Below are positions 19,996 through 46,748 of a stretch of DNA of 64,000 nt, piece by piece. The DNA is taken from assembly GCA_016432365.1 (NCBI GenBank), contig CP066686.1, positions 346,906 through 410,905 of the forward strand, written 5' to 3'. Each line of letters starts with the position of its first letter. Within the stretch, counting starts at the first letter, position 1. Origin of the DNA: Candidatus Woesebacteria bacterium. GTDB lineage: Bacteria; Patescibacteriota; Microgenomatia; UBA8517. Both the position numbers and the translations under genes were made by a program. The notes beneath the pieces are model-generated. The model saw only the letters and a program-made list of their open reading frames with translations. It was not told the DNA's origin and did no database searches.

Positions 19996-19999
19996 AATT

Positions 20000-20404
20000 T
20001 TACTGCCTATTCTCAAACCATAAAGGATTCTCGATTTTGTTTCCGTGGCGGTAGTCAAAAGTTATTTCTTCATCTTTTTTAATGTTTTTTAAGGCAATAA
20101 ATTCGACTATTTCTTTTTTTGGATAAATTTTGAAATTTGAGTTCGGCGTTTCGGAATGATTGTAGATTGATCCAAAACCAAGCATGATACACAAGCGTTC
20201 TTTAGTTTTTCCGAAGTAAAGAAAGTAAGTTACCAAAAAACTTTCATATAACTTAGAAGTATCACCTATTGGTATTTCTATGATCGGACATTTTTCGATA
20301 ATTTCTCCTTTTTTGATATTGCACTTAGCAAACACCCCTCGTCCGGCGCTGGAAATTTTCGACTCGGAAACGTAAATTTTATCTGATGCCGAAAGTTTTC
20401 TCAT
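20000..20404 (-). CDS. SET domain protein
   Basis: GRGVFA, YNHSETPN, EEITFDY. Confidence 0.92.
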   Translation of the reverse strand: MRKLSASDKIYVSESKISSAGRGVFAKCNIKKGEIIEKCPIIEIPIGDTSKLYESFLVTYFLYFGKTKERLCIMLGFGSIYNHSETPNSNFKIYPKKEIVEFIALKNIKKDEEITFDYRHGNKIENPLWFENRQ

Positions 20405-30700: not shown

Positions 30701-30784
30701 TGCTGGGGGACGGGGATTTGTGCGCATAACATACAATTCCCTAATTAGCGCTATTAAATCACCGATACCAGCGAACGAAGTGGG
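30701..30784 (-). repeat. tRNA-trailer element plus degenerate tRNA-Gln 3' end (proximal copy)
   Basis: CCCACTTCGTTCG..GTGATTTAATAGCGCT..TGCGCA|CAAATCCCCGTCCCCCAGC. Confidence 0.8.
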
Positions 30785-30855
30785 CTGGGGAGCAGGGATT
30801 TGAACCCCAATAGGCAGATCCAGAATCTGCAGTCCTACCATTAGACGACTCCCCA
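30785..30855 (-). tRNA. tRNA-Gln(CUG)
   Basis: Cloverleaf: TGGGGAG/CTCCCCA acceptor stem, GCAGA-TTCTGGA-TCTGC anticodon arm, GTTCAAATC. Confidence 0.95.
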
Positions 30856-30947
30856 TCGTCGAAACTGGTTTCGCTGTCGGTTTACAGCTTACGCCTAAAC
30901 CTTATCGCTCCACCGTTTCTCCTCTCAAAATTCTCGAAGAATTTTGT
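30856..30947 (-). ncRNA. Conserved structured tRNA 5'-leader element (copy 1)
   Basis: Colinear homolog of 46438-46530 with compensatory stem changes. Confidence 0.7.
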
Positions 30948-30989
30948 ACTGAGGACAAAAGGTCCAACAGTAAGGCTATTATACCATCC

Positions 30990-32030
30990 TTAGCCTGTAA
31001 TTTTGGAGGCTAAGGGAATTTTGTGGATTAGGAAAGCAGCCAAAAACGAGAGTCCGAGAACCACTCCAAAAAATATCGGGTCAAAAATAATTTTCCCTAC
31101 CGGCATAGACCCAAAAGAGTTAAACAAAGATTTCCCGACAAATTTCCAAACATTTTCCAAAATGATTACATGTATAAAGAATACAAAAAACGAAGCATCC
31201 GAAAGTTTTTTACGGGGTGAAGATTTAAGATGTTCTTTGTCAAAAATATAATAAAAAATTAAGCCGAACAAAATTGTGTAAACCAAAGTACTTGGCCTGA
31301 AGTTTGAATAAAAAGTCAGGTAATTGCCGGTCTTTAAGAAATTTGTCATTCCTTCCAAAAAAATAAAGAAGCCGGTTATTGCCGCGGAACCGGCCAAAAT
31401 AAATCTCCATTTTTTTGCAGATTCCAAGATTCTGTCTTTGTTTCTCGCAGCGACCATACCTAATATAAAGACAAAATAACACATGAGAGCGGTATGCAAC
31501 GGATCGTTAAGGTGGTATGGTTTTACATAATAATCTTGCCGCAAAATATACGCTTGAGAAATAAACAAACCAATCAGAATCCATTTGTTGGCAACAAATC
31601 TGTAAATTTTGTGGAGAAGGGGAAAAACTAAATAGAAAATAAAAAGAGTTGGAATAAAATAAAGTTGGTAAGAGGCGTTACCTAAATATAAGACTTTGAA
31701 AAAATTATCGCTGTTTTGGTTATAAACAAAAAAATAATAAATAAGACTCCAAAAAATATAAGGAATTAAAATTCTACTAAAACGCTTCCTGAGATATGAA
31801 AAATAGTTAGTGTGATTTGAATAATTAAGTTCAAGTGCAAAACCCGAGACGATAAAGAATAGGGGAACTGCAAACCTTGCGATCTGGTTCAGAAAAAGAG
31901 TAAATGGAAAACCCGTTAAGTTGTCTTTTGTCGCTTCGATTGTTCGGGTTGTTGTATGAATCAAAACCACAGCAGAAATTGCGATAGCCCTCATCGCGTC
32001 CAGTGATTTAACATAGACTTTTTCGGTCAT
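30990..32030 (-). CDS. Acyltransferase 3 family membrane protein
   Basis: LDAMRAIA..VVLIH, RFAVPLFFIVSG, YQLYFI. Confidence 0.9.
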   Translation of the reverse strand: MTEKVYVKSLDAMRAIAISAVVLIHTTTRTIEATKDNLTGFPFTLFLNQIARFAVPLFFIVSGFALELNYSNHTNYFSYLRKRFSRILIPYIFWSLIYYFFVYNQNSDNFFKVLYLGNASYQLYFIPTLFIFYLVFPLLHKIYRFVANKWILIGLFISQAYILRQDYYVKPYHLNDPLHTALMCYFVFILGMVAARNKDRILESAKKWRFILAGSAAITGFFIFLEGMTNFLKTGNYLTFYSNFRPSTLVYTILFGLIFYYIFDKEHLKSSPRKKLSDASFFVFFIHVIILENVWKFVGKSLFNSFGSMPVGKIIFDPIFFGVVLGLSFLAAFLIHKIPLASKITG

Positions 32031-32040
32031 ATGAATATAT

Positions 32041-33549
32041 CTATTCGATTATTTGCTCCTCTTTCTTTGCCGACAAAAACTGAACCCACGAATCAATGAA
32101 TCCCAGTATTATTTTAAATGGCGCTTCAAGGATGAAGTCAAATGTAAATGCCAAAAAGTTTAACTTGGAAAGCCCCTGGCTTAACCTGCTTCCGATTGCC
32201 AAAATTGGCAAAGAAAGAATTTCAATAAAAGTCGCTCCCCGCGCTTCCGTTCCTTTCCATGAATATACTTTAGCGATTTGAGCGATTCTATAAGCGAAAA
32301 AGGCGATTATTGTAAGGAAGAATATGAATATAAATTTACTGAAGAAGGTGTATCCTATCCGTCCTAACGTGTAATATATTGCCCAAAAAACTCCAAAGAA
32401 AAATATGGCATAGAGAATAGAGAATAGATAGTATACAAAGTTGTGATCTCCTTCACTTTCGGAATTTCTTAAGACATCTTTTTCGTTCTTAAGAGAATCA
32501 AAATTTTCCAAAATATACCAGGCACGCTCTATTAGCGAGGCTTTTTCTTTTTTGGATGGGAGCTTAATCTGCATTGTCGTTAACCACATGAGTAAGGGTG
32601 GAAAAGTCAGGTTTACCGTCAGTGGGAGAATGCTTAAATGTCCGTAGACAAATACTTCGAATGGGACTTCCAGTCCGAACGCCAGGATCATCTTGGTAAG
32701 GAATACGTAAAAAACACTTCTGACTCCGGCTGTAGCGATTTTCCCGGACATCTGGTCAAGCTGAGTTTTTAAAACTTCTTCTGCTCGTTTATCAAATACC
32801 CCCTTTTTTGTGATCGTGCTTTTAAATTCGACCGGTGCATAAAAATATATATCTCTGAGGATTATCATTGGTGGCATTTGACGCCTGACAAATTTACTGA
32901 TTCTGGGAAGTTCTTTATGCGTTCTGGCTTGTATAAATAGTTTCCAAGCCTCTTCGAACTTGTCTCTTGTGATGGTGCCTCCTGCAAGTCCAAGTATGTG
33001 GTAGGCAATTTGTTCATCATCACTTGCCGCATAAACCTTGTCGGTCGCAAAAAATGTAATTAGGTCCAGATCCGTCCCGGTCATTGCAATTTTCTGTCGG
33101 ACTACTTGGTAGGCGAAGAAAGTAAATTGTTTATAATCGGTGTTTAAATTAAAAAGTTCTTCAATTTCGGCCGAAGCAATTTTCAAAATCCACTCTGTGG
33201 GTACAGAGCTACCGATAAAACTGACATATTTTGCAAGCACATTCTTAAGATTTGCTTTGTCGGAAACTTTTAGCTCTTCATACGAAACATATTTTGCCCA
33301 AGCAAGCTCTGTTAATAAGCGGTCGGCAATTTTTATGGGATCTTTGGTCAGAATTACTATTCTTTTTAGTATCCTTTCAATTGCTGCTCGCCTTACCAGG
33401 TTATCTGCGCGGTACTCCAAGGCATTCCTTGCTTTTTCGTATACTCCTGCTAGGGTTTCTACAAAACCATTGGAACTTTCTCTGTTTTTTTCATTAATTA
33501 TTCCGCCATAAGACAAACGCGAAAGAAGCGCAACAAGTGGTTTGTTCAT
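32041..33549 (-). CDS. Hypothetical polytopic membrane protein
   Basis: 502 aa; YEKARNALEY..RRAAIERIL; C-terminal TM segments. Confidence 0.8.
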   Translation of the reverse strand: MNKPLVALLSRLSYGGIINEKNRESSNGFVETLAGVYEKARNALEYRADNLVRRAAIERILKRIVILTKDPIKIADRLLTELAWAKYVSYEELKVSDKANLKNVLAKYVSFIGSSVPTEWILKIASAEIEELFNLNTDYKQFTFFAYQVVRQKIAMTGTDLDLITFFATDKVYAASDDEQIAYHILGLAGGTITRDKFEEAWKLFIQARTHKELPRISKFVRRQMPPMIILRDIYFYAPVEFKSTITKKGVFDKRAEEVLKTQLDQMSGKIATAGVRSVFYVFLTKMILAFGLEVPFEVFVYGHLSILPLTVNLTFPPLLMWLTTMQIKLPSKKEKASLIERAWYILENFDSLKNEKDVLRNSESEGDHNFVYYLFSILYAIFFFGVFWAIYYTLGRIGYTFFSKFIFIFFLTIIAFFAYRIAQIAKVYSWKGTEARGATFIEILSLPILAIGSRLSQGLSKLNFLAFTFDFILEAPFKIILGFIDSWVQFLSAKKEEQIIE

Positions 33550-33651
33550 TTGACAGATTGTATACCTAAAAAGCTATTATTTGCACGCAAGTGAATAAAT
33601 GTTGCGAAAAGGTAACTTGACAGTCGGTATACTTTTTGGTAGTTTATATTC

Positions 33652-34368
33652 ATGAAGTCAAGATTGGCAATAATAAGTGTAGTCATTTTTATCGGTCTGC
33701 TTTTTCATTACAATTCAGGTGTTTATGCCAGAGATTCGTCTGATACTTCGTCCGATTCAGATGAAAGTTTGGAACTGAAGACTTCACGACCGGAACGATT
33801 TATTACCGAATTTAGAACCCCGAAACCATCAGAGTCTCCTGAGCCTTCAGAGTCGCCTGAACCTTCGGAGACGCCACGAGTAAAAGGTGTGGATCGCCTG
33901 GAGAATCAGAGACTTAGATTTTGTGAGAATCATCAAGACGAAATTGATAATCATTTGACAAGTTTAGGAAATTTGGTGGCATCAATGTTAGGAAAATTTG
34001 ATTCGATTGCGGCCAAAGTGCAAGAGTTTTATACGACAAAAGTTGCACCAACCGGCAAGACAGTCGCGAACTATGCAGCATTGGTTGCGGACATTGAAGC
34101 AAAAAGAACCGCAGTTGAGACGGCTTTAGCCAATAGTCACAAGGACGTTACTAACTTTACTTGTACCGGAGAAAATCCCAAAGGGCAGATTAGGCTTTAT
34201 AGGACTGATATGCAATTAGTCAAAAAAGCTTTACAAGACTATCGAACTTCGATTAAAAATCTGATTGTAGCAATAAAGTCGGTAGTGGGGGAAACAAATC
34301 GCGAATCTCCCGAACCAAGTGAAACGCCTAAATCGACAACCAGCCCTGTTCCGACCGCAACACCGTAA
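33652..34368 (+). CDS. Hypothetical secreted helical protein with ESPEPS repeats
   Basis: Signal peptide, Pro/Ser/Glu repeats. Confidence 0.8.
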   Translation: MKSRLAIISVVIFIGLLFHYNSGVYARDSSDTSSDSDESLELKTSRPERFITEFRTPKPSESPEPSESPEPSETPRVKGVDRLENQRLRFCENHQDEIDNHLTSLGNLVASMLGKFDSIAAKVQEFYTTKVAPTGKTVANYAALVADIEAKRTAVETALANSHKDVTNFTCTGENPKGQIRLYRTDMQLVKKALQDYRTSIKNLIVAIKSVVGETNRESPEPSETPKSTTSPVPTATP

Positions 34369-34664
34369 TGAAAATGAAAAATAACCAAAAAGGAATAATA
34401 CAGTTATTATTAGTAATAGGGATTGTTGCGGTGTTAACGTTTATCGGTTATCTTTTGTACACACAAAATATGCAAAAACAAAAGATTTCTGTTTCGGCGG
34501 TTCCGTCCCCTTACCAAGTTCAGTATCAAAAAGCCGGGGATGAGGTTGCACCCGTAAAAGACTCGAGCGATTTGACCTCTGTTGATGCCACACTAGATGC
34601 AACTGACATAACTGAATTAGATACCAGCCTTAATGCTTTGGGTTCGGCTACTGCAGGCTTCTGA
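34368..34664 (+). CDS. Small protein with pilin-like leader
   Basis: NQKG|IIQLLLV class III-like signal. Confidence 0.65.
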   Translation: MKMKNNQKGIIQLLLVIGIVAVLTFIGYLLYTQNMQKQKISVSAVPSPYQVQYQKAGDEVAPVKDSSDLTSVDATLDATDITELDTSLNALGSATAGF

Positions 34665-34672
34665 AACTTTAG

Positions 34673-35038
34673 TTAAAAGAGAATCTTCAATTTTGGGAGG
34701 AATAGAAGTGCCCCGATTATTATCGACCCCATAGAAGCTACAAGTACACACGCCGCTGCGACGTCCTTGGCGATTTTTGCTTTTTCCCGAAACTCCGGAC
34801 TTATAAGATCTACTATTTCTTCGATAGATGTGTTTACAAGTTCAAGAATTAGAACAAGCGTGATAATAGCAACCAGATTAAGCCATTCGCTAAGGTTGAG
34901 TTTAAGGGCAAAGCCCAAAATAACGGCCAACATACCGATAAACAGTTGGATTTTGAAATTTCTTTCTTGAAGAATCACACCTTTTAGTCCGTTAATGGCA
35001 AATCGGAAACTTTTTAAAAGTGAGTGCCTATGCTCCAT
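34673..35038 (-). CDS. dgkA: Diacylglycerol/undecaprenol kinase
   Basis: ERNFKI, ELVNTSIEEIVD, AKIAKDVAA. Confidence 0.92.
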   Translation of the reverse strand: MEHRHSLLKSFRFAINGLKGVILQERNFKIQLFIGMLAVILGFALKLNLSEWLNLVAIITLVLILELVNTSIEEIVDLISPEFREKAKIAKDVAAACVLVASMGSIIIGALLFLPKLKILF

Positions 35039-35071
35039 ACGATATGATACCATTTTAGTATATCTCAAGCC

Positions 35072-35557
35072 ATGGAGGATCTAATTATTATTTATTTTGC
35101 AAGCTTTTTCATTTATTTCCTATTCTTAGGACTTGTTGTTTTGTGGTTTATTGACGGTAAAATCAAAAAGGAACAGGTGGTTCATGCTCTGTTTGCCTGC
35201 CTTTTTGCTTGGATAATTGCCGCTCTAATAAAGCATTTTTTCCCAACCTTACGCCCTTTTGTTGTTAATGGAGGCGAGACGGGAGTAATCTTAAGGCCTA
35301 CGGACGGAGCATTTCCCTCCGAGCATACCACCCTCGCGTTCGCTCTAGCTATAACAGTTTTTATGCATGATAGGAAAATTGGTTGGTTTTTTTTGATAGG
35401 CGCTCTTACTGTCGGAATTGCCAGGGTATTAGCCAATGTTCATTATCCGATTGATATTATTGGCGGAGCTTTCTTGGGTACGTTGGTAGCAGTAATAGTT
35501 GAAAAACTACATTTTTTGGATTTGATAAACAAACTTTCTCCAAGAAACAGGAAGTAA
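35072..35557 (+). CDS. PAP2 phosphatase (undecaprenyl-diphosphatase-like)
   Basis: K..RP, FPSEH, ARV..VHYPID. Confidence 0.9.
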   Translation: MEDLIIIYFASFFIYFLFLGLVVLWFIDGKIKKEQVVHALFACLFAWIIAALIKHFFPTLRPFVVNGGETGVILRPTDGAFPSEHTTLAFALAITVFMHDRKIGWFFLIGALTVGIARVLANVHYPIDIIGGAFLGTLVAVIVEKLHFLDLINKLSPRNRK

Positions 35558-35644
35558 AATTTGAGGGGCCTTGCCCCGTAATTTCGCCCTTGCGACGCAA
35601 ACATGGAGTATTTGGGAGCAAGTAAGAAAGTATGGGGTTGACAA

Positions 35645-35671
35645 TTAGCAGACGATCATTTAGACTGCTAA
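35645..35671 (+). promoter_or_regulatory. CIRCE-like HrcA operator upstream of lon
   Basis: TTAGCAGAC-N9-GACTGCTAA directly after TTGACA (35638-35643). Confidence 0.75.
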
Positions 35672-35679
35672 ATAATTAA

Positions 35680-38100
35680 ATGCAAAAATTGCAAAAAGAT
35701 ACAGCCAGACGCGTTCCAATAGTTCCGGTAAGAGGGACTGTCGTTTTTCCTCACACCGATACGTTAGTCTCCTTCGGACGCGCAAAAAGTATTGCCGCTG
35801 TTAATTCCGCATTTCAGGAAGACAGAGTAGTTGCTATTTTTACACAAAAAGATTCCAGAACGGAGGATCCGGGCAAGGAAGATCTTTTTGAGGTTGGCAC
35901 AATCGCGACCATCACTCAAATGATGTCTACGGACGGTGAAATTCACGCCTTGATCCGTGGGCAAGCAAGAATTAGCCTTCTCGAAATACTTACCGAAGAG
36001 CCGTTCCTTGTTGGTAAAGTTGAAGAAATCCCTGAGGAGATTGAGGTAACCCCCGAAATTTCTGTGTTGGCAAAAAATCTTCAGGAGTTATTCAAAAAAT
36101 CTATTAATTTGGGCAAACAAGCAGAAATAATGACTGTTATGAAGTTGGTCTCCGGCGGGGTCGAGCCTGTCGAAATGGTAGACCAGGTAGCATCGCTTTT
36201 GGAAGTGAAACAAAATGAAAAACAAAAGCTTTTGGAAGAATTAAATCTTAAAACACGTTTAGATAAAGTCTCGGAGTTGCTTGTAAAAGAGGTAAATGCT
36301 CTTGAAGTTGAGCGAACCATCTCATCAAAAACACAAAAGAGATTTGAGGATCAGATGAAAAAGGCCATGCTTCGGGAAAAGAAGAGAACAATTGAAGAAG
36401 AGTTGGGAGAGATGGCAGATGAGGGAGAACTAACTAATGAAGAAGCCAAAGAGTATAAAAATAAAATCAAAGAGGCCGGGATGCCTTTAGAAGTAAGAAA
36501 TAGAGCAGAAAAAGAACTTAAACGTCTAGTTAGTATGTCTCCCAACAACCCCGAGGGAGCCTATATAAGAAACTATTTAGATTGGCTTTGTGACATGCCC
36601 TGGAGCAAGGTAAGTCCCAACAATGTTGCTATGAAGAAAGCGGCCAAAATTTTGGAAGATGAGCATTTTGGAATTGACAAAGCAAAAGAGAGAATTTTGG
36701 AATTTATGGCTGTGATGAAAATTAAAAAGGCTGCCAAAATCAAAGATGGCGGGGCACATCCGACAATTCTTTGTTTCATTGGGCCCCCAGGGGTTGGTAA
36801 AACTTCAATTGGAAGATCGATTGCAAAAGCACTGAATCGTAAATTTGTCAGGGTTTCTCTTGGAGGAATCAGAGACGAAGCGGAGATTAGGGGACACAGG
36901 CGCACCTATGTCGGTGCACTTCCTGGCCGTATTGTTCAGGGAATCAAAGATGCGGGTACAAAAAATCCTGTTTTTATGTTGGATGAAATAGATAAAATCG
37001 GAGTAGATTTCCGAGGCGATCCAAGTTCTGCACTTTTGGAAGCCCTGGACCCTGAACAAAACAAAGAGTTTTCCGATCATTATTTGGAAGTTCCTTTTGA
37101 TTTGAGCGAAGTCATGTTTATTTGTACCGGAAATGTGTTGGATACAATTCCGGGTCCACTCAAAGATAGAATGGAAGTAATAACATTCCCGGGTTATACC
37201 GAAGTGGAAAAATTTCAGATTGCGAAGAAATTCCTTTGGCCCAAACAGTTAAAAGCTACGGGGTTGGAAGATAAGAAAATCGAAATAGAAGACGCCGGTC
37301 TTAAAGAGGTAATAGGTAGCTATACCAGGGAAGCCGGGGTACGTAATTTGGAAAGAAATCTGGCCTCGGTTTGCCGCAAAGTGGCAAGACTTGTCGCGGA
37401 AGGCAAAAAATACCCCAAAAAAGTTGAAGTTTCCAATATCCGTAAATTCTTAGGGAGTCATAGATTTTCGTCCCAAATTGCTGAGAAAAAAGATGAGGTG
37501 GGAGTAAGTACGGGACTTTCCGTAACTCCGTTTGGCGGCGAAATATTATTTATCGAAGTGTCTTTAATGCCGGGGAAAGGTAAGCTTACATTAACCGGAC
37601 AGTTGGGAGATGTTATGCGGGAGAGCGCCAAGGCAGCCTTCACCTGGACGCGCTCGCATTACTACGAACTAGGTCTTAAACCAAATTTTTCGGAAAATAT
37701 TGATATCCACATCCACGTTCCAGAAGGAGCGGTTCCTAAAGATGGTCCCTCAGCCGGTGTGTCGATTACTACAGCCCTAGTTTCTGCTCTCACAGGAGTT
37801 CCTGTTAAACGTGATGTGGGAATGACCGGAGAGGTTACTCTGCGCGGCCACGTACTCGAAATTGGGGGACTTAAAGAAAAATCGATTGCAGGGCACCGTG
37901 CTGGTCTAAAAACTATTATTGCTCCCAAGGAGAATAAAAAAGATTTGGATGAGTTTCCGGAGGCTGTTAAGAAAGATATTAAGTTTGTTTTTGCGGAAGA
38001 AGTAGAAGATGTACTAAAGGTAGCACTTTCGGAATGGCCGCTCAAAGTCCGCAAGGAAACAAAGTTTACTTCAATTTCCTCAACCCTTGTGGCCAATTAA
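35680..38100 (+). CDS. lon: ATP-dependent Lon protease
   Basis: LON N domain, GPPGVGKTS, RGHRRTYVG, PKDGPSAG. Confidence 0.98.
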   Translation: MQKLQKDTARRVPIVPVRGTVVFPHTDTLVSFGRAKSIAAVNSAFQEDRVVAIFTQKDSRTEDPGKEDLFEVGTIATITQMMSTDGEIHALIRGQARISLLEILTEEPFLVGKVEEIPEEIEVTPEISVLAKNLQELFKKSINLGKQAEIMTVMKLVSGGVEPVEMVDQVASLLEVKQNEKQKLLEELNLKTRLDKVSELLVKEVNALEVERTISSKTQKRFEDQMKKAMLREKKRTIEEELGEMADEGELTNEEAKEYKNKIKEAGMPLEVRNRAEKELKRLVSMSPNNPEGAYIRNYLDWLCDMPWSKVSPNNVAMKKAAKILEDEHFGIDKAKERILEFMAVMKIKKAAKIKDGGAHPTILCFIGPPGVGKTSIGRSIAKALNRKFVRVSLGGIRDEAEIRGHRRTYVGALPGRIVQGIKDAGTKNPVFMLDEIDKIGVDFRGDPSSALLEALDPEQNKEFSDHYLEVPFDLSEVMFICTGNVLDTIPGPLKDRMEVITFPGYTEVEKFQIAKKFLWPKQLKATGLEDKKIEIEDAGLKEVIGSYTREAGVRNLERNLASVCRKVARLVAEGKKYPKKVEVSNIRKFLGSHRFSSQIAEKKDEVGVSTGLSVTPFGGEILFIEVSLMPGKGKLTLTGQLGDVMRESAKAAFTWTRSHYYELGLKPNFSENIDIHIHVPEGAVPKDGPSAGVSITTALVSALTGVPVKRDVGMTGEVTLRGHVLEIGGLKEKSIAGHRAGLKTIIAPKENKKDLDEFPEAVKKDIKFVFAEEVEDVLKVALSEWPLKVRKETKFTSISSTLVAN

Positions 38101-38141
38101 AAAAACCTCCGTCTGAGAAAATTTCCCAAAAAACGGAGGTT
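38099..38141 (-). terminator. Intrinsic terminator between convergent genes
   Basis: AACCTCCGT..ACGGAGGTT with T run on the minus strand. Confidence 0.65.
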
Positions 38142-38170
38142 CATTGTAACTAGGTTACAGAAAAAGTTTG

Positions 38171-39316
38171 TTATCTGCGTTGAAGGCCTTTCAAGAAATT
38201 CCTCGTCATCGGATCATCGAGTCCGCGTATGGCAGCCTCACTTTCCTGTTTGGTGACATGTTCACCATCGAGCTGTTTGCCAAGTGCAACCAGGACGTTT
38301 CCAACGTTGGGTTCATCTCTTGTGACAGCTTCCTTGTGGCAAAAATGCGCAAAGTCATCAATTCCACCAGGACCATCGCGACGGAAGCTCGGCCATGCAC
38401 GGTCAAAGGCATCGGCATCAAGCTTGGTAAAGTGGCGTATGAATTTTGCCATTTCTGTCCAGTGGCCTGATGTAAACCATGGTCTGCCGTCTTGATAGTG
38501 CCAGCCTTTGTCATCTGTTTGGCGTGCAGCGCTTAGGATACGCCTATGTAGGGTGGTTGAAACAGGGAGTGGGGCCCAATGCCACGATTCGTAAATACTG
38601 ATTGTTTCCGGAATTGGGAGGCGGTCATATTCAGCATACTGCTTTCCCTTCCACACCTTGACGATTTTATGGTTCCAATAGGAGCCATAGTGATCGTAAG
38701 GCTCAATCACGGCCGTGTTTCGATTCCAGTTAAGGTCATACTTAATGGCAATCAGCTTTCCTTGACCAACCGAACCATAAGACCATTTTCCTTCATTACG
38801 CTTGAGGTAAGCTTCTGCTTTTTCGCCTGTGACAACTGACAATCCACCTTTAAGGAACTCTGGGTAAAGGTAGAGAATCCCATTTTCCGTATCCCATTCC
38901 TTGACCTTCATGCGGAGTTCCGGTGCGAACATTCCACGTTCCTCATCGTTGTTGAAGACGAAGGTAAAGGTGGAACCATCAACCAGTTCGTAATACGTGA
39001 CAGCGCCGCACTTTTCGCATTTATGTCCGTGCGATTGGATGCCGGTGGTGGAAATCTGTTGATGACAGGTACCGCAAATACCAAAACGAAGATTCGGAAG
39101 TTTAGCGAACCAAAGCGACCAACCGTTTATCTCCATTGTGGCAACAGGAACGCCGTCTTTCTTGCGGTAATCTGATTGGCGGAGGTCTTCAACTTCATAT
39201 CCACTCTTTCGGAGCTCTTTCAACAGGCGATTGAGGGCTTCTGGTGTTTTGGCATAAATATCCCCCATTACGTCGATGAGATCGTCATTTTTGACAGTGA
39301 GATTTAACCCTAACAT
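38171..39316 (-). CDS. Hypothetical protein with CxxC..CxxC zinc ribbon
   Basis: 381 aa, AAGGAGG RBS, CGTC/CEKC; visibly more GC-rich than its flanks. Confidence 0.85.
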   Translation of the reverse strand: MLGLNLTVKNDDLIDVMGDIYAKTPEALNRLLKELRKSGYEVEDLRQSDYRKKDGVPVATMEINGWSLWFAKLPNLRFGICGTCHQQISTTGIQSHGHKCEKCGAVTYYELVDGSTFTFVFNNDEERGMFAPELRMKVKEWDTENGILYLYPEFLKGGLSVVTGEKAEAYLKRNEGKWSYGSVGQGKLIAIKYDLNWNRNTAVIEPYDHYGSYWNHKIVKVWKGKQYAEYDRLPIPETISIYESWHWAPLPVSTTLHRRILSAARQTDDKGWHYQDGRPWFTSGHWTEMAKFIRHFTKLDADAFDRAWPSFRRDGPGGIDDFAHFCHKEAVTRDEPNVGNVLVALGKQLDGEHVTKQESEAAIRGLDDPMTRNFLKGLQRR

Positions 39317-39373
39317 TGATGCCTCCTTTAGGCCTCAAATTGAATACAGATATTAAAAATATTCTGTTTTTTG

Positions 39374-39429
39374 TGAATGTACTTAAGACACTGAGGCTGA
39401 ATGTTACTACCACCACATTTCAAAGTCAA
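39374..39429 (-). promoter_or_regulatory. Promoter plus NrtR operator
   Basis: TTGACT-17-TAACAT, then TCAGTGT-CTTAAGT-ACATTCA (39394-39374). Confidence 0.65.
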
Positions 39430-39484
39430 TTATTACAGGGTGTGTTAACTGAAGAATCACGGAGGTCGATTTGTATTTTTAGGA

Positions 39485-40135
39485 TCAGCTATTGCCTGAA
39501 TCCTCTAAAACGCCAACGCTTAAGTCTGTTCCGTCGTAATTAAAAATGAAAGTAATAGGTTTTTCTTTGTTGTTAACAATATAAAGGTTTTGACGGGAAC
39601 TGTTGGCAAAGGCTCCAGGCATAAAGCGGATGGAAACTCCATATTCCCTGGGAACATCGTTGATCTTAGCAAAGTCGTGTCTGGCAAGAGACACGGATGT
39701 AAGACCAGCATCCAAGGCAACCCAATGTATGAACGATGCTAAATGGCAGACACCGTCCCCAACTAAGTACCCGTCAGATTTAAAACCGTCATCTGAGTTA
39801 AAGTGGGCATTAGTGGTCTTGACCACGGTTTTGCTGTATTCAGGCAAAACTTGATCGTGAAAGGCAAAACCCTCTCCGGGTTTAAGGGTAAACTGGGTTT
39901 GAAACGGTTTTTCTACTTCTGGCCAGGAAATATCCTCTCTGTTCTTTACATCACCGTCCATATACCTGAGGGTTAAAAGAATGTTGTCCCTAAAGACCTC
40001 GTTTACCGAGGCTACGTTGTACCTATTTTCCATGGAATAGCTACGGGATGCCAACTCCACGCTGGAGGCTCCAGACACACGGGGGGTGTGCGGGTTAGAA
40101 ACTAAGGCCATAATTAGCAATAAGTCAGTAAACAT
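39485..40135 (-). CDS. VanW-family protein
   Basis: LKPGEGFAF, GDGVCHLAS. Confidence 0.8.
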   Translation of the reverse strand: MFTDLLLIMALVSNPHTPRVSGASSVELASRSYSMENRYNVASVNEVFRDNILLTLRYMDGDVKNREDISWPEVEKPFQTQFTLKPGEGFAFHDQVLPEYSKTVVKTTNAHFNSDDGFKSDGYLVGDGVCHLASFIHWVALDAGLTSVSLARHDFAKINDVPREYGVSIRFMPGAFANSSRQNLYIVNNKEKPITFIFNYDGTDLSVGVLEDSGNS

Positions 40136-40250
40136 AGGTAAAAAGACCCGAAGCAAGTTCAGGCGAGTGTGAATTCTATCATACTATGGGGCGGAAGTCA
40201 ACTTTAGTGGGGGAGCTTTACATCAGTCGAAGAATCGGCTAATCTGGAAT

Positions 40251-40907
40251 ATGACCAGAAAAAAGTTAACAAAAAAATTCAATTGGTTTAATTTTGCATT
40301 ATTTTTTCTAGCTTCAATTGCAGGTGTTTTTGTCCTCCAAAAATCAATTATAGGGACCACCTGTGCAAATACAGGAAGTTGTAAGGAAAGCTTGAGTCTC
40401 AAAGTTGAAAATGGAGCTGTCGGAAAATTTAACGGTCAAAAAGTAACACCTCCTCAAATAGATCTTGCGAAGAAGGAAACTCCAACCAAAGTTTTGGGTG
40501 AAGCGACTCTTACTGGAGAAAAACATATTTATGTTGATTTAACTACCCAAACCCTTTCGGCTTATCAGGGAGATACACTTTTCTTGCAAACCCTCATTTC
40601 TTCGGGCAAATCATTTCCGACGCCAACAGGTGAATTCACAATTTGGGAAATGTTGCGTGCCACGCGTATGTCCGGTGGATCAGGGGCTTTTGCATACGAT
40701 TTACCAAATGTTCCATATGTGATGTTTTATTCAGGCAGTGGAATTGCCGCGGCGCAGGGCTTTAGTCTTCATGGGACTTATTGGCACAACAACTTTGGCC
40801 ACCCCATGAGTCATGGCTGTGTAAACATGAGGACAATAGATGCAGAAAAGATTTTTTATTGGGCGGAGGTAGGAACTAAAATAACAGTATATGGACAAGC
40901 ACCTTAG
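40251..40907 (+). CDS. L,D-transpeptidase (YkuD family)
   Basis: TPTG, LHGTYWH..SHGCVNM. Confidence 0.92.
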   Translation: MTRKKLTKKFNWFNFALFFLASIAGVFVLQKSIIGTTCANTGSCKESLSLKVENGAVGKFNGQKVTPPQIDLAKKETPTKVLGEATLTGEKHIYVDLTTQTLSAYQGDTLFLQTLISSGKSFPTPTGEFTIWEMLRATRMSGGSGAFAYDLPNVPYVMFYSGSGIAAAQGFSLHGTYWHNNFGHPMSHGCVNMRTIDAEKIFYWAEVGTKITVYGQAP

Positions 40908-41508
40908 TTTTTATATCACCGCTTTTATCTTCGCAGTTATTGGTATACTCCTTCTGGTCCAGTCTGGAAAAGGGAACAACCCCAAAGTGCCGGCATTCGT
41001 AGAAGCTGTACAACCAAGCTCGTCCCCTATGAGCTTATCAATTGAAGAAGCGCTTTCGCCGGATGGCAAAAAAATTTTGATGATGAAGCAACAAGCTAAA
41101 GACGGTGTGATTACTTATACATTTTCTGTTTTGACACCCGCTGATAATTCAAAAAAAATTGTGTTTACAAAGACGTTCGGGCCTGAGACCACACTTGTGA
41201 TTCCACGCAACACTTTTTCACCCGATAATAAGTATGCTTTGTTGGCAGAAAAGAGTGGCGAAAAATTTGCATATTTTGTTATCCCACTTTTTGATTCACC
41301 AAATTTTCAAGAACCTCTAAACCTTCCTGTCATTAACGACCACTTTTATACCAAGTATCAGGATTACAAAATTACGGATGTTACAGGTTGGGGTGGTATA
41401 GGTCTTGTAGTTGTAAATACGGACATGGCTGCAGGCGGAATTGGGCCATCTTTTTGGTTTGATGTTTCAAACTCGTCTTTTATTATGCTTTCGACACGCT
41501 TCAACTAA
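40891..41508 (+). CDS. Hypothetical membrane-anchored protein
   Basis: TM segment, SPDG/SPDN propeller-like motifs. Confidence 0.75.
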   Translation: MDKHLSFYITAFIFAVIGILLLVQSGKGNNPKVPAFVEAVQPSSSPMSLSIEEALSPDGKKILMMKQQAKDGVITYTFSVLTPADNSKKIVFTKTFGPETTLVIPRNTFSPDNKYALLAEKSGEKFAYFVIPLFDSPNFQEPLNLPVINDHFYTKYQDYKITDVTGWGGIGLVVVNTDMAAGGIGPSFWFDVSNSSFIMLSTRFN

Positions 41509-41513
41509 CTGGT

Positions 41514-43082
41514 TCAATCAGTTCGGTAATGGCATCCGGCACTTTTGGTGTTTTCCCATGCAGCGTTTGCTATTAAGTTACCGACCAGTACTAAATTTCT
41601 AAGTCCGATTAATGATTCGTTTAGATTTTTTTGTTGATAAAAACTTTCAATTCTGTGAGTAAGATACGAAAGATCTGCTTTGGCTCTAGTTAAGCGTTCT
41701 TTATTTCTCACCAGGCCTACACAATTCCACATTATTTGTTTAATCAAATTTGTATCTTGATTAATAAGTGCAGGGTCGGGATCTTCTTTGCCTTGATCGA
41801 CCCATTGGGGAATTTGGGTTGGATTTGGAACTTGTGTTTTTTTTGTCCGGTTGATGTTGTGGGCAGCGATATATCCCCAGGTTAATCCTTCAAGAAGAGA
41901 AGTCGAGGCAAGTCGATTTGCACCATGAAGGCCGGTACAGGCAACTTCGCCTACGGCATATAAATTTTTTATGGTTGTAGCGCCATTCTCATCCACCCAA
42001 AGCCCACCGCAATGATAATGGGCGGCAGGAACAACAGGAACCAGATCGCGGGTTAAATCGATTCCGTATTTTAAACACTCTTTGTGGATATTGGGAAAGT
42101 GGGTCAAGATTCTTTCCTTCGAAATATAACTTTTTAGGTCCAGATAGACATTTGTTATTCCGCCTTCCAGCATTTCTGTATAAATCGCACGTGCTACAAC
42201 ATCCCGGGGGGCAAGGTCCTTCCACTGTTTACTGTATTTATCCATGAAAGGGACGCCATTTGAATTTGTTAGGCGAGCGCCATCTCCCCGTATGGCCTCG
42301 GTAAGCAAGAAACGCGGAGCATCTTTGTGGTAAAAAGCAGTAGGATGAAACTGAACATACTCCATATTGATTACGCGTGCGCCGGCCCTTTGGGCCATAG
42401 CAATTCCATCTCCACGAGCCCCATCCGGGTTTGTTGAATATAAGTAGACATTTCCAAGTCCGCCGGTTGCCAAGACCACATTTTTTGCAATGATTCTAAC
42501 GACCCTTTTATCTATTGGATCAAAGAAATAGGCTCCAAGACAGGCGACGGGGTCGTAAATTGCCAACTTGTTTGTAGAATTGTGTGATGAAGTAATTAGG
42601 TCGACAGCGGAAAGATTTGCGAGGAGTTTAATCTTTTTATTACTTTTGACTTTTTCTATTAAGGCACTTTCTATTGATTTACCGGTAGCGTCGGCTTGAT
42701 GGATTATTCTGGCAATGCCGTGTCCGCCTTCCTTTGCCAGTGAGAGGTCAAATCCTTCCCGGTCAAACGAAACGCCAATTCTGTCTATAAGAAATTTTTT
42801 GACCAGGGACGGTCCAACTTTCGTCAAAATATCAACCGCCTTTGGATTTGATAGATTTACCCCGGCATTGAAGATATCTTTTGCCAGGAGGGATGGGGAG
42901 TCGTCCTTGCCCTTATAAATAATTCCACCCTGAGCATAATAAGTATTTGATTCCTCAGGTTTTTTATTTTTGGTAATAAGAATAACCTTATGCCCTAAGT
43001 GTGCAAGTTCCAGGGCGCATGTAGCACCCGCAATTCCACTTCCGATAATGAGAGTATCAGTAGTAACTAATTCTTTTTGCAT
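41514..43082 (-). CDS. nadB: L-aspartate oxidase
   Basis: GSGIAG, AQGG, EGGH, QFHPT, EAIRG, AHYHCGG, LHGANRLASTSLLEG. Confidence 0.96.
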   Translation of the reverse strand: MQKELVTTDTLIIGSGIAGATCALELAHLGHKVILITKNKKPEESNTYYAQGGIIYKGKDDSPSLLAKDIFNAGVNLSNPKAVDILTKVGPSLVKKFLIDRIGVSFDREGFDLSLAKEGGHGIARIIHQADATGKSIESALIEKVKSNKKIKLLANLSAVDLITSSHNSTNKLAIYDPVACLGAYFFDPIDKRVVRIIAKNVVLATGGLGNVYLYSTNPDGARGDGIAMAQRAGARVINMEYVQFHPTAFYHKDAPRFLLTEAIRGDGARLTNSNGVPFMDKYSKQWKDLAPRDVVARAIYTEMLEGGITNVYLDLKSYISKERILTHFPNIHKECLKYGIDLTRDLVPVVPAAHYHCGGLWVDENGATTIKNLYAVGEVACTGLHGANRLASTSLLEGLTWGYIAAHNINRTKKTQVPNPTQIPQWVDQGKEDPDPALINQDTNLIKQIMWNCVGLVRNKERLTRAKADLSYLTHRIESFYQQKNLNESLIGLRNLVLVGNLIANAAWENTKSAGCHYRTD

Positions 43083-43083
43083 T

Positions 43084-44175
43084 TTAACTAATTGTCATCA
43101 TTCGTCTGACCGCAACTTCTGCAGGGCGTCTAATTTCTTCGGGGATCGTTACTTCATACTGATCAAATCTGAGGGCATCGAGAGTTTGTTCTAATGTAAT
43201 TGTGTGCATAAACTTACATCGTATATTGCACATTCTAACTAAGTTTTCGTTAAGTTCCGGGTGAGTGGCAACTATATTGTCAGCCATGGAACATTCTGTA
43301 AGAAGTGCAATTTTTTTATCTGCTCCGTTTTCCGTAACCCATTTTGTCATTGCAGAAGTACTTCCGGAAAAATCCGATTTTGCGATTACACCCGGCGGAC
43401 ATTCCGGATGGGCCAAGATGACTGCTCCCGGATAATCTTTTCTTATGTCATCGACAAGTTGGGGAGTGTATTGTTCGTGAACATAACAGCGGGCATCCCA
43501 TCCGATTATTGTCGGTTTTTGGGTAACTTCTGCTTCACTTTTGACAGAATCTTTTGTCGGGAAATATAAATCCATTTTTAGATCATTCGCAACATTGCCG
43601 GCCATATATTTGTCCGGAAGAAATATAACTGATGGTACGTTGAAATACTTTTTAGCCCAAGCAATTACCTGGTTAACATTTCCTGAAGTACAACATACAT
43701 CAGTCAAAGCTTTAACGTCGGCAGTTGTATTGATGTAACTTACTATTGGGAGATTGGGATATTTTTCGCGGAGCCAAACAAGATTTTCCGGTTTAATTCC
43801 TTCCGCCAGAGAACAACCGGCATCAAGTGATGGAATTAAAACTTTTTTGCTTGGATTTAAAATCTTGGCAGTTTCAGCCATAAAATGAACACCGCAAAAA
43901 ACGATCGTATCTGCATCTGTTTCCGCTGCACGTTTAGAAAGTTCCAGCGAGTCCCCTCTAAAATCAGGAACTGTGTGGAAGAGAACCGGCTCCATATAAT
44001 TATGTCCCAAAATCACGGCATTTTTCTGACGTTTCAATTCCATGATTTGACTAACCAGGTCTGCTTTATATTTAAGTTCGAAATCTGGCACCACGCTTTC
44101 CGGAATTGATCTTCTGAGATCGACTCTTAATCTTTCGTAAACTTCACTTGATGATTCTTGTCGTTCTGTTTTCAT
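43084..44175 (-). CDS. nadA: Quinolinate synthase
   Basis: GHNY, GDSLEL, FCGVHFMAETAKILNP, GCSLA, HPEC; three Fe-S cysteines. Confidence 0.97.
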   Translation of the reverse strand: MKTERQESSSEVYERLRVDLRRSIPESVVPDFELKYKADLVSQIMELKRQKNAVILGHNYMEPVLFHTVPDFRGDSLELSKRAAETDADTIVFCGVHFMAETAKILNPSKKVLIPSLDAGCSLAEGIKPENLVWLREKYPNLPIVSYINTTADVKALTDVCCTSGNVNQVIAWAKKYFNVPSVIFLPDKYMAGNVANDLKMDLYFPTKDSVKSEAEVTQKPTIIGWDARCYVHEQYTPQLVDDIRKDYPGAVILAHPECPPGVIAKSDFSGSTSAMTKWVTENGADKKIALLTECSMADNIVATHPELNENLVRMCNIRCKFMHTITLEQTLDALRFDQYEVTIPEEIRRPAEVAVRRMMTIS

Positions 44176-45008
44176 TATATTTCTAAACTAACATCCATCG
44201 CTTTTACCGAATGGGTGAGGGCACCTACTGAAATGTGAGTTACACCCGTTGCTGCAATACTTCTTACTGTTTGGAGATTGACGTTTCCGGAAGCTTCGAG
44301 TGGAACACGGCCGTTGGTAATACTAACGGCCTCACGCATTTTTTCTAAACTCATGTTGTCAAGTAAAATTCTATTGACAGGGAACTTTAAAGCTTCGGTT
44401 AGCTCTTCAATATTTTTTACTTCCACCTCGACGGGGAGGTTTAAAGAGTTTGCTGTAAGAACTTTTTCCAAGGTTGCGCCGATAGTTCCCACCGCCGCAA
44501 TGTGGTTGTCTTTAATGAGAATTGCGTCACTTAAGTTATAACGGTGATTTTGTCCGCCTCCCGCTTTAACCGCTATTCTGTCCATCAGTCTTAAACCGGG
44601 GGCGGTTTTTCTGGTATCCAGAATTATTGTTTCGTACGGCTCAACGGCCTTTACAAATTGATGTGTTAGGGTTGCAATTCCGCTCATTCGTTGAAGAAAA
44701 TTCAAAGCAACTCTTTCGGCGGTTAATATACTTCTGGTTTTCCCAAAAATTGTAGCGGGAATGTCACCTTTTTTTACTTCTGTGCCATCTGGAATTATAT
44801 GTTCAAATTGAATATCCGGATCAAAAGTTTCAAATGTAATTCTTGCGATATTTAGCCCGGCGATAACACCCTCGCTTTTTACCAGAAGTTCTGCGGTTGA
44901 CCTTGCTTCCTCGGGGATAGAGAGATTGGTGGTCACGTCTCCGTTAATGCCAACATCTTCCGCAAGCGCCCCTTTTACTATTTGAACAATTTTTTCGTTC
45001 TCGATCAT
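44175..45008 (-). CDS. nadC: Quinolinate phosphoribosyltransferase
   Basis: ERVALN, DTRKT, NHR, LIKDNH, EVEV, LLDN, EASG; start placed at MIENEK. Confidence 0.97.
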   Translation of the reverse strand: MIENEKIVQIVKGALAEDVGINGDVTTNLSIPEEARSTAELLVKSEGVIAGLNIARITFETFDPDIQFEHIIPDGTEVKKGDIPATIFGKTRSILTAERVALNFLQRMSGIATLTHQFVKAVEPYETIILDTRKTAPGLRLMDRIAVKAGGGQNHRYNLSDAILIKDNHIAAVGTIGATLEKVLTANSLNLPVEVEVKNIEELTEALKFPVNRILLDNMSLEKMREAVSITNGRVPLEASGNVNLQTVRSIAATGVTHISVGALTHSVKAMDVSLEI

Positions 45009-45065
45009 ATGTGTATAAATTACACTTTCTAAAATGAGTGTATTCCTTACACTAACTATTGTCAA
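45008..45065 (-). promoter_or_regulatory. nad operon promoter with two NrtR operators
   Basis: TTGACA-17-TACACT; boxes TATGTGT-N7-ACACTTT (45008-45028) and TGAGTGT-N7-ACACTAA (45035-45055). Confidence 0.8.
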
Positions 45066-45100
45066 GTATCAGTTAAAAGATGGTACAATCATCAATTAGA

Positions 45101-46297
45101 ATGGCAAAAGAAAGCGCTGAAATAAAAGTCGACGACAGACTAAAGTATCTGAGTTTCGGCAAAGATGCTTATTATAATGAGTTTACCTACCAACCGGACG
45201 AGACTCCTGATATCCGACTCGATATATTTCTCAAAGACCCGGCCAGAGTAAAAGAGCGGGGAAAGATGCTGGACAACATTGACACCCTAGATAGACGACT
45301 TGGGGATCCCGAAACTTTAAAGCTAACAGGTGAGGAATCTTTTGACAAGCAGTTAATTAAAACAGTTAAACAAGTTGCTGTTAGTTCCGGAGCTTCACCC
45401 GATTTCATTAATAGTCTTGATAAGCCGGGAATGTTATTTGCTCATCAAAAAGAAATCGGCGATTCGGGAGTTGCCCTCTTCCAACAAATTGAGGAAGTAG
45501 TTGGACCTGGCCGGATTTTATCTTCCAGACAAGTAATCTTGATGGAATTCGCCGATCGAACACACGACACATTTAAGCTCCTGGGGAGCATGAATGCCCA
45601 AATAGACCCTGATCATGAGGTTGTTTATAGAAAAATCATGGGCAAACATCTGGAAGGCAAGGCTTTTATTCCTACCAAAGGGGATCCGATTGTTTTTACC
45701 GCCGAGGACGTAAAATTTATTACGTCAGTTGTCGGTTTTCATGAAGATATTTGGCGAGAGGAAAGTTTTGCAAAACAGGCAAACTTTCTTAAACAGTCAA
45801 ATGATGTTAATAGTCCTGAAGTTGCGGTGGCCAGAGCCCGCACTGTCTTACATGTCATAGATATTTTCGGGAACGCCGTTAGGTTTGAGAGTGGCGTTCT
45901 TAAAATTGTAAATGCAGAAGCATTTCAAGCAAGGTTTGTTGACTTATTTACGCGCCACATAAGCTTGCCATTAGTAACAAATGGAGACACTACATTAATT
46001 GATTGGTCCCGCGGAAAAGTATTTCGACCATCATGGGGTCTTCATGGGGTGGCTGGATTAACATGGACGTTTGGGATACTTAAAGATGAGTGGGGAATTG
46101 ACGTTGATCCGAATCTGAACCTATCAGTTCAGAATGGAATTCTTGGAGTACTAAAGGAGGCAGAGAGGGCGATAACAGAAACACAGGCGGGAACTTCAAA
46201 ATATCGGTCGACTAATGATCCCGAACTTTCGGCAAAACTTACAGTTATTCAGAATACCATAACCAAGTTGGAAGATGAAATTAAAAAGGGAAAGTGA
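45101..46297 (+). CDS. Hypothetical protein (possible HD-like fold)
   Basis: H..HD..K and FHED motifs. Confidence 0.7.
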   Translation: MAKESAEIKVDDRLKYLSFGKDAYYNEFTYQPDETPDIRLDIFLKDPARVKERGKMLDNIDTLDRRLGDPETLKLTGEESFDKQLIKTVKQVAVSSGASPDFINSLDKPGMLFAHQKEIGDSGVALFQQIEEVVGPGRILSSRQVILMEFADRTHDTFKLLGSMNAQIDPDHEVVYRKIMGKHLEGKAFIPTKGDPIVFTAEDVKFITSVVGFHEDIWREESFAKQANFLKQSNDVNSPEVAVARARTVLHVIDIFGNAVRFESGVLKIVNAEAFQARFVDLFTRHISLPLVTNGDTTLIDWSRGKVFRPSWGLHGVAGLTWTFGILKDEWGIDVDPNLNLSVQNGILGVLKEAERAITETQAGTSKYRSTNDPELSAKLTVIQNTITKLEDEIKKGK

Positions 46298-46437
46298 TTT
46301 GACTTTAGCCTTACTCAGCCATTCCCCATGTGATACGAGACCATACTTGCTCGCACCGAAATAAAAATTATAGGTCGTGGGATCTATTATATTTGGTTAA
46401 TTCTGGTAAAATACTCGTAGCGCCCCGTTCTCACCCC

Positions 46438-46530
46438 ACGAAATTCTCTTAGAATTTCGAGAGGAGGAATAGTCAAGCGGTAGGGTTTAAGCGCTAGTGG
46501 TAAACCCAAAAGCGAAACTTATTCCGACGA
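46438..46530 (+). ncRNA. Conserved structured tRNA 5'-leader element (copy 2)
   Basis: Homolog of 30856-30947; ends in CGACGA directly before a tRNA 5' end. Confidence 0.7.
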
Positions 46531-46549
46531 GGCCCCATCGTCTTAGCGG
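46531..46549 (+). repeat. Duplicated 5' end of tRNA-Glu
   Basis: GGCCCCATCGTCTTAGCGG versus tRNA GGCCCCATCGTCTAGCGG. Confidence 0.8.
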
Positions 46550-46594
46550 AGCAAATGCGACGCGGACGATTGCGTAGCATGCCAATTCAGAATT

Positions 46595-46667
46595 GGCCCC
46601 ATCGTCTAGCGGTCTAGGACACTAGATTCTCATTCTAGTAACTTGGGTTCGAGTCCCAATGGGGTCA
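46595..46667 (+). tRNA. tRNA-Glu(CUC)
   Basis: GGCCCCA/TGGGGTC acceptor stem, CTAGA-TTCTCAT-TCTAG anticodon arm, GTTCGAGTC. Confidence 0.95.
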
Positions 46668-46748
46668 CCCACTTCGTTCGTTTCCCATTGTGTCTCGATA
46701 GTGCTGTTTGGGGCTTCGCATTTTGCACACGAGTCCCAATGGGGTTAC
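46668..46748 (+). repeat. tRNA-trailer element plus duplicated tRNA-Glu 3' end
   Basis: CCCACTTCGTTCG..GATAGTGCT..TGCACA|CGAGTCCCAATGGGGTTAC. Confidence 0.8.

Follow-up and report, generated by a model that had tools for sequence, protein, structure and literature searches.

A polar hairpin-forming repeat family at tRNA gene borders in Patescibacteria, a candidate small mobile element

Why should two different tRNA genes of one bacterium be preceded by the same structured element of about 92 nucleotides (nt)? The question is raised by a 64,000-nt stretch of Candidatus Woesebacteria bacterium (the window; GenBank assembly GCA_016432365.1, contig CP066686.1, positions 346,906 to 410,905), in which the element lies at 30947-30856 (-) and 46438-46530 (+). 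The original prediction, made from the letters alone, left two answers: a tRNA-processing or regulatory leader RNA, or a non-autonomous element that targets tRNA genes. Here, the second was supported and the first was not. The element belongs to a family of polar, hairpin-forming repeats; the 92-nt unit makes up one half of such a repeat, and its CGACGA end stands against tRNA borders. A small mobile element is likelier than a processing leader because of the antisense placement of copies at tRNA 3' ends and the copies in Clostridia that stand away from tRNAs.

The two window copies are identical at 69 of 93 positions with a single gap, in keeping with the nearly gapless alignment first reported. 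The TGnTAnAAT promoters proposed for them are also present, as extended -10 promoter-like boxes: TGGTATAAT (30978..30986, -) stands 30 nt before copy 1, and TGGTAAAAT (46404..46412, +) 25 nt before copy 2. Copy 1 (30856..30947, -), an A-type half, consists of hairpin 1 (30946-30926), an AGAGGA linker (30925-30920), a long interrupted stem (30919-30861) closed by tandem GA/GA and a G-C pair, and the CGACGA end (30861-30856). It scored 99.9 bits with covariance model R1, which was built from 18 5' copies including this one, and it ends at the +1 position (30855) of tRNA-Gln(CTG) (30785..30855, -; ARAGORN; Rfam RF00005, 54.8 bits). Copy 2 (46438..46530, +; 100.1 bits, likewise an R1 training sequence) is an A-type half of the same architecture, with its CGACGA end at 46525-46530 (+). 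It adjoins an exact duplicate of the first 13 nt of tRNA-Glu (46531-46543), not the working +1. This displaced 5' fragment and a separate small cassette fill 46531..46594 (+), between copy 2 and the working tRNA-Glu(CTC) gene (46595..46667, +; RF00005, 60.1 bits; ARAGORN); the duplicate sits 64 nt upstream of the true +1 and was left by that 64-nt cassette. Thus, the claim that both copies end exactly at a tRNA +1 stood for copy 1, while copy 2 falls 64 nt short.

In each window copy, a 9-bp hairpin is followed by the AGAGGA linker and then by the long stem. The base of the long stem reads G-GA...GA-C, with a G-C pair outside two facing GA dinucleotides that probably form sheared G-A pairs. 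Folding z scores for each copy were about -3.9 as RNA and -3.4 to -3.5 as DNA. The AGAGGA and AGCG motifs described as invariant were found in both, with three AGCG motifs instead of two in copy 2. The named stems are present and covary: 18 of 28 stem pairs changed on both sides in an unfitted alignment of 18 copies, a value as high in 0 of 500 shuffles, and 25 of 28 did so in a model-fitted alignment of 63. The covariation bears out the earlier view of a selected single-strand structure. Internally deleted copies of 41-72 nt retain both ends. No Rfam family covered the element at gathering or E-value thresholds, with only tRNA passing in the window, and no passing Rfam match lay over the element in 20 Clostridia loci; the first impression that it matches no recognised family therefore held. 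A description of the family was likewise not found in searches of the open-access literature.

The source genome (G000), a single contig of 1.08 Mb with 40% GC, holds 17 copies by R1, so the window pair (2 of the 17) is not special. All 17 adjoin a tRNA or transfer-messenger RNA (tmRNA) end or a 5' fragment. Twelve are sense 5' copies (nine at a tRNA or tmRNA +1, three at a displaced 5' fragment), and five are antisense 3' copies sitting directly after N73-C74 of a tRNA. R2, the retrained model, gave one additional weak match (E 0.01). The distribution is patchy: R1 matches occurred in 12 of 41 relatives (0-16 per genome) and in 22 of 151 genomes across the phylum, and R2 matches in 39 of 125 genomes of the family. 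Exact-pattern matches in public genomes mostly carried the titles Woesebacteria, other Microgenomates or Patescibacteria, and many titles read "uncultured Gammaproteobacteria". A diverged copy at tRNA-Gln was present on a DNA contig of another study, with 19 differing letters and 3 gaps in 165 nt. Pattern hits to the left motif alone, in a Bacillus relative, an Anaerolineales metagenome-assembled genome (MAG), an archaeon and three gut firmicute MAGs, were rejected.

To describe placement across Patescibacteria, 297 distinct sequences were pooled; the set comprises only matches whose loci were fetched, its related members are not independent, and two rejected left-motif-only hits (L175, L191) remain in it as weak unassigned rows. 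A total of 252 of the 297 touch a tRNA end or a tRNA-end fragment. The chance of doing so is about 0.04% per position, and the model contains no tRNA sequence. The sense copies at 5' ends number 193, with 157 directly at a tRNA or tmRNA 5' end and 36 at displaced 5' fragments; the direct copies stand mostly at offset 0 (123), with 15 at +1 and 14 at +3. Another 59 are antisense at tRNA 3' ends or 3' fragments, where they directly follow CCA if it is encoded and N73-C74 otherwise. Six stand at start codons, three of them, by eye, of ribosomal protein genes. By eye, many of the remainder (27 unassigned, 12 without a called terminus) were degenerate fragments or tRNA ends truncated at contig edges, and a few were false. 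Matches are thus not always at a tRNA +1, as the antisense, displaced and start-codon copies show. The original prediction had named hits scattered independently of tRNAs as its refutation; in Patescibacteria the copies are tied to tRNA ends, and in Clostridia they are mostly elsewhere.

The same strand-specific motifs are kept in both placements. The 3' copies retain GGA in 58 of 59 cases and the GAC end in 57 of 59, on the strand antisense to the tRNA, and the GAC end is present in 182 of 193 5' copies. A -10-like box lies upstream of 114 of 157 solo 5' copies versus 7 of 26 solo 3' copies; the folded strand of the 3' copies is therefore probably not transcribed. More than half of the 3' copies (33 of 59) stand in back-to-back, outward-facing dimers with a 5' copy, 27 of them with a 4-12-bp spacer, 4 sharing hairpin 1 and 2 arranged otherwise. 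Only 36 of the 193 5' copies are paired, and most are solo halves. For many different tRNA pairs, such a dimer takes up the entire spacer; two tRNAs are flanked on either side. The 3' copies also tend to group apart as a B subtype: 11 of 15 nearest neighbours are themselves 3' copies.

The family extends beyond Patescibacteria. One pattern match, titled Clostridia, proved to be a complete A/B dimer, alignable with the dimers of Patescibacteria. Its genome, the Clostridia MAG G288, has 21 matches, which make up 10 A/B dimers and a single half; all are intergenic, none is close to a tRNA, and they often lie in mosaics with other repeats. R2 matches were obtained in 36 of 150 sampled genomes of its class (one further genome was unscored). 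Among 53 Clostridia matches, 9 are antisense and immediately follow a tRNA CCA, 44 lie elsewhere and none is at a tRNA +1; one copy adjoins the 5' end of a 5S rRNA.

Comparison of orthologous sites showed that the element comes and goes. The tRNA-Gln(CTG) site is filled in G000, empty in the congener G001, where a matching -10 box precedes the element-free tRNA, and occupied by a different cassette in G002. Further empty and filled orthologous sites were found at tRNA-Glu(CTC) and tRNA-Lys(TTT) between G002 and G001. Copies are on average about 64% identical, and those at the same tRNA in different genomes are hardly closer (0.65 versus 0.63). For 74 of 93 copies, the nearest neighbour stands at another tRNA in another genome.

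Given the observed placement, polarity, dimers, patchiness and spread across phyla, the reading that we favour, with moderate confidence, is a non-autonomous REP/REPIN-like repeat that is recognised as folded single-stranded DNA (ssDNA) and whose CGACG end is joined to the borders of stable-RNA genes by an enzyme acting in trans. The recognition of ssDNA, the cut and the carrier are proposed by analogy with the REP/RAYT and Ssn systems (PMC3733652, PMC11893778). The GA-rich strand would fold while heavily transcribed loci are transiently single-stranded, and a REP/RAYT-like or Ssn-like cut beside the CGACG end would attach the unit to the border of the gene. Survival would be limited to insertions that leave +1 and C74/CCA intact, and copies would circulate between genomes. 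We propose that copies unable to fold do not move, and that this preserves the fold. For copies at 5' ends, the prediction is that they are passengers, transcribed within the pre-tRNA leader and then cut off by RNase P.

A bolder version, which we regard as possible but doubtful, is that of enzyme-less mobile DNA shared between phyla. It would read the borders of stable RNAs (tRNA +1, tRNA C74/CCA, tmRNA and 5S rRNA) to the exact nucleotide on either strand, by an unrecognised ssDNA or RNA-templated chemistry. If true, this would be a natural form of safe-harbour insertion at tRNA ends, in which the gene is neither damaged nor duplicated.

Several results weigh against a mobile REP-like repeat. 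There was no sign of a recent burst in Patescibacteria, the maximum identity within one genome being 86%. Target-site duplication was absent: direct repeats of at least 8 nt flanked 2 of 157 solo 5' copies, versus a null of 1.3%, and 1 of 26 and 3 of 50 further copies, with nulls of 1.3-2%; inverted flank copies were likewise at the null level. No excision product or joined circle was found among contigs, a search of low power. The Leu(TAA) orthologues of G000 and G001 keep their stems, with 8 differences mostly in unpaired positions, and the adjoining gene is far more diverged. This pair is compatible with host selection, and a recent recombination tract could be the alternative.

No mobiliser was found either. 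Neither a Y1 transposase (PF01797) nor a reverse transcriptase (RT) was matched in G000 and G014, the highest-copy genomes among the 41, and G288 has no PF01797 match and no small GIY-YIG gene. GIY-YIG family matches occurred in 40 of the 41 genomes and are therefore near-universal, and none of 21 small GIY-YIG loci inspected by eye in seven genomes was bracketed by element ends. The presence of RT, Y1 and GIY-YIG does not track the element across the 41 genomes. The small GIY-YIG nuclease was unsupported as the mobiliser of this family; in two of the 21 loci the element is one tRNA gene away, and the two Y1 loci of G292 are without the element. An autonomous parent was sought in 59 genome-scan loci, relatives' loci and Clostridia half-element loci, with open reading frames judged by eye and few compared with Pfam; the long stem contained no open reading frame, and no enzyme bracketed by the element was found. 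Viral contigs gave 0 matches to the full pattern and 10 to a looser one, none of which scored with the model. BLAST searches of phage and plasmid collections, made with a window copy and with a Clostridia copy, were negative.

A further difficulty for the REP-like reading is a G-U bias in the stems. In 174 of the 252 tRNA-end copies (alignment A9 rows were left out), G-U and A-C counts were 117:63 in 5' copies and 19:13 in 3' copies, versus 28:2 in the acceptor and T stems of 47 tRNAs of the source genome. At 5' sites the bias, though weak, is real, and the transcribed strand is the favoured one (p 7e-5). In Clostridia, the tally, made from related copies in a fitted alignment, was 62:17 overall and 16:1 in the nine antisense copies, on the GA strand.

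Such a bias would be expected of a functional pre-tRNA leader RNA, possibly a domesticated repeat, that serves processing, stability or regulation and is released by RNase P as a 100-125-nt structured RNA. Most tRNA-end copies (193 of 252) are sense at a 5' end or fragment, the solo ones mostly behind a promoter-like box and the direct ones mostly ending at offset 0. The strong covariation, the RNase P RNA and protein encoded in the source genome and the stems kept in the Leu(TAA) pair also fit. However, the G-U bias is far weaker than in tRNA stems (Fisher p 0.001 for 5' copies and 0.002 for 3' copies), and the same motifs are kept in 59 antisense 3' copies. At displaced fragments, 36 copies (window copy 2 among them) stand apart from the true +1; in congeners, the same promoter serves the same tRNA with no element present; and 0 of 53 Clostridia matches stand at a tRNA +1. 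A functional leader is therefore unlikely. RNA runs, in which only 3-7% of the words occurred, were uninformative on expression: in run X10, contigs covered tRNA bodies, not the element.

An orientation-specific ssDNA site, such as a single-strand origin or a priming or packaging site, is also an improbable source of the family. Mobilisable elements with a relaxase or serine recombinase would have left or spread such sites at tRNA attachment regions. Two Clostridia copies lie 360-390 bp from the starts of MobA/MobL relaxase genes, and three have a large serine recombinase gene no more than about 600 bp away. The AGCG motifs of the element resemble the CS-6 box of ssoA. In PMC4595007, a text in which CS-6 does not appear, single-strand origins are multi-hairpin DNA and specific for orientation. 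However, only about 6 of 53 Clostridia matches are near such genes (five loci were scanned), and Patescibacteria copies are flanked, by eye, by ordinary-looking genes and promoters. The element also carries no tRNA duplication of its own: no tRNA duplicate lies at its far end, and the tRNA-fragment duplicates of the window belong to neighbouring cassettes. The empty plasmid and phage searches and the lack of a model match in viral contigs point the same way.

Copying through RNA is less probable still. RNase P would free a leader with a precise CGACGA-3'OH end, where an RT would begin to copy it onto tRNA ends; 5' ends would be reached by template jumping, and at 3' ends the tRNA would be the primer. 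One template end would then explain both orientations. The junctions are nucleotide-exact, 3' copies directly follow CCA where it is encoded, and error-prone copying would fit the high divergence. Against this, G000 and G014 gave no RT match, and RTs are present in genomes that lack the element. In this family, the 3' copies follow N73-C74, which is the genomic gene end in 44 of 47 tRNA genes and not the mature CCA, and these B-type copies mostly resemble each other (11 of 15) although they have no promoter of their own. Finally, a self-cleaving ribozyme that makes tRNA 5' ends, suggested by the many 5' copies exactly at +1, can practically be dismissed, since no Rfam ribozyme matched, offsets of +1 and +3 and antisense and start-codon copies occur, shortened copies of 41-72 nt persist, and none is needed where RNase P RNA and protein are encoded.

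Among known systems, the CGTC-tagged REP/REPIN repeats are close to the preferred REP-like reading. In Di Nocera et al. 2013 (PMC3733652), an unpaired CGTC stands beside the stem, as here on the strand opposite the GA motifs (the reverse complement of CGACG). Both families are polar, form outward-facing heterodimers with a spacer and vary patchily in copy number, and CGTC repeats without a linked transposase are described there, as is the case for the element. In contrast, those REPs measure 20-40 bp with an 8-9-bp stem that starts with AT, a 4-5-nt loop and a CCA tail; the element lacks the AT stem start, the 4-5-nt loop and the CCA tail, and measures 92-100 nt with two hairpins. They reach hundreds of copies, versus 17 here, and the element is docked at tRNA borders in Patescibacteria. 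Unlike in REP/RAYT systems, no Y1 (HUH) transposase flanked by the element was found in G000, G014, G288 or G292.

A second parallel is provided by the NTS/SRM repeats of Ssn GIY-YIG nucleases (Chenal et al. 2025, PMC11893778). There, SsnA cuts host DNA just outside the CGTC of a directional ssDNA hairpin. The element is likewise a directional hairpin with host DNA beyond CGTC, and its cutting as ssDNA may be analogous. Small GIY-YIG genes occur on the same tRNA flanks, 9 of 16 loci being within about 300 bp of a tRNA. However, the element differs by eye from the NTS consensus given there, no GIY-YIG gene is bracketed by it, and the true SRM-flanked small GIY-YIG genes in G012 and G175 (L115, L121) carry a different repeat. 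Because it fails the tests of size, stem and partner gene, we did not file the element under CGTC-tagged REP or SRM.

Nor was it filed under miniature inverted-repeat transposable elements (MITEs), because it fails the duplication test. Like Correia, ERIC and Nezha (Delihas 2011, PMC3184786), it is noncoding, shorter than about 200 bp and folding, with empty and filled orthologous sites. Short inverted termini (TCGTC...GACGA) are confined to the dimer. Unlike those MITEs, the element lacks target-site duplication, its halves are mostly solo with a mean identity of about 64%, and no parent insertion sequence was found. Single-strand origins of rolling-circle plasmids and integrative and conjugative elements (ICEBs1 sso1, PMC4595007) are, as described, orientation-specific and multi-hairpin like the element, of which a few Clostridia copies lie near relaxase or recombinase genes; the element is multi-copy, chromosomal and located at tRNA borders. 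The 5' copies lie between promoter and +1, as do tRNA 5' leader regulators (T-box and other Rfam cis-elements), but the element has no Rfam match, has antisense and non-tRNA copies and comes and goes between congeners. Unlike an att remnant of an integrative element, it has no flanking direct repeat or target-tRNA duplicate.

Streamlined Patescibacteria keep little noncoding DNA, and even so 17 copies of a 92-nt structure stand at the borders of about one-third of the tRNA genes of the source genome. If the element is mobile, its targeting (exact, on both strands, without duplication and with the gene intact) is unlike that of integrase islands and known REPs and implies an unknown mobiliser. 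The mechanism should be testable in Clostridia, because the same A/B dimers occur there and some Clostridia are culturable. For noncoding RNA screens, the family is a caution that a textbook-like covarying "leader RNA" can be a DNA hairpin repeat.

Small GIY-YIG genes were also seen apart from the element. The window contains a stand-alone 83-aa GIY-YIG gene (19744-20058, -; PF01541, 75 bits) without element ends around it. Elsewhere, 80-90-aa GIY-YIG genes are wedged between tandem tRNA genes or end at or near a tRNA +1 (L107 in G002, L109 in G001, L127, L130, L132 and L133), and in the Lys-Glu tRNA spacer of G000 a 3' element stands in place of the GIY-YIG gene. In G000, a copy of the tRNA-His 3' end comes immediately after a GIY-YIG gene that lies 10 kb from tRNA-His itself (L112; C1, about 701.6-701.9 kb), probably the far end of an integrated island.

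Other cassettes crowd the same tRNA borders. Separate 3' cassettes, which are not part of the element, follow both window tRNAs. That at 30702..30782 (-) terminates in an imperfect duplicate of the tRNA-Gln T-loop-to-3' end (30720-30702), and that at 46669..46748 (+) in a duplicate of the same part of tRNA-Glu (46730-46748). The two are related, are about 80 nt long and begin CCACTTCGTTCG. Similar cassettes of about 80 nt follow tRNA-Gln(TTG), Pro(TGG), Leu(TAG), Thr(TGT), Cys and tmRNA in the source genome, and they look like gene-less mini-islands that cross over in the T-loop. Duplicates of tRNA 5' ends like that at 46531-46594 (+), often with a AAGCAAAGCTTG core, precede many tRNAs in the source genome and its relatives. 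In a metagenome tRNA cluster (L351), seven element copies alternate, over 2.1 kb, with cassettes made from 3' and 5' tRNA fragments. The source genome also gave odd tRNA calls on C1, namely, Ser(ACT) at 155877-155962, Ile(TAT) at 74788-74861, Thr(AGT) with a 212-nt interruption at 144277-144563, and a cluster of tRNA-like genes near 655.5 kb (655448-656048).

In Clostridia, a GGG-YC motif lies just left of hairpin 1 in 26 of 50 copies versus 5 of 157 solo 5' Patescibacteria copies (loci L473-L511 in Clostridia; L070, L083, L084 and L087 at the phylum level), and it may be the true left end of the element. An 18-nt direct repeat on both sides of one Clostridia copy (L507:770-868, -), 86 bp before a large serine recombinase gene, was the single clean duplication found. 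At L465 and L464 in G291, an apparent amidase gene has a displaced 5' fragment, which is followed by an A-type half, and the gene start is resupplied downstream; at L464 this 167-bp unit is tandemly repeated.

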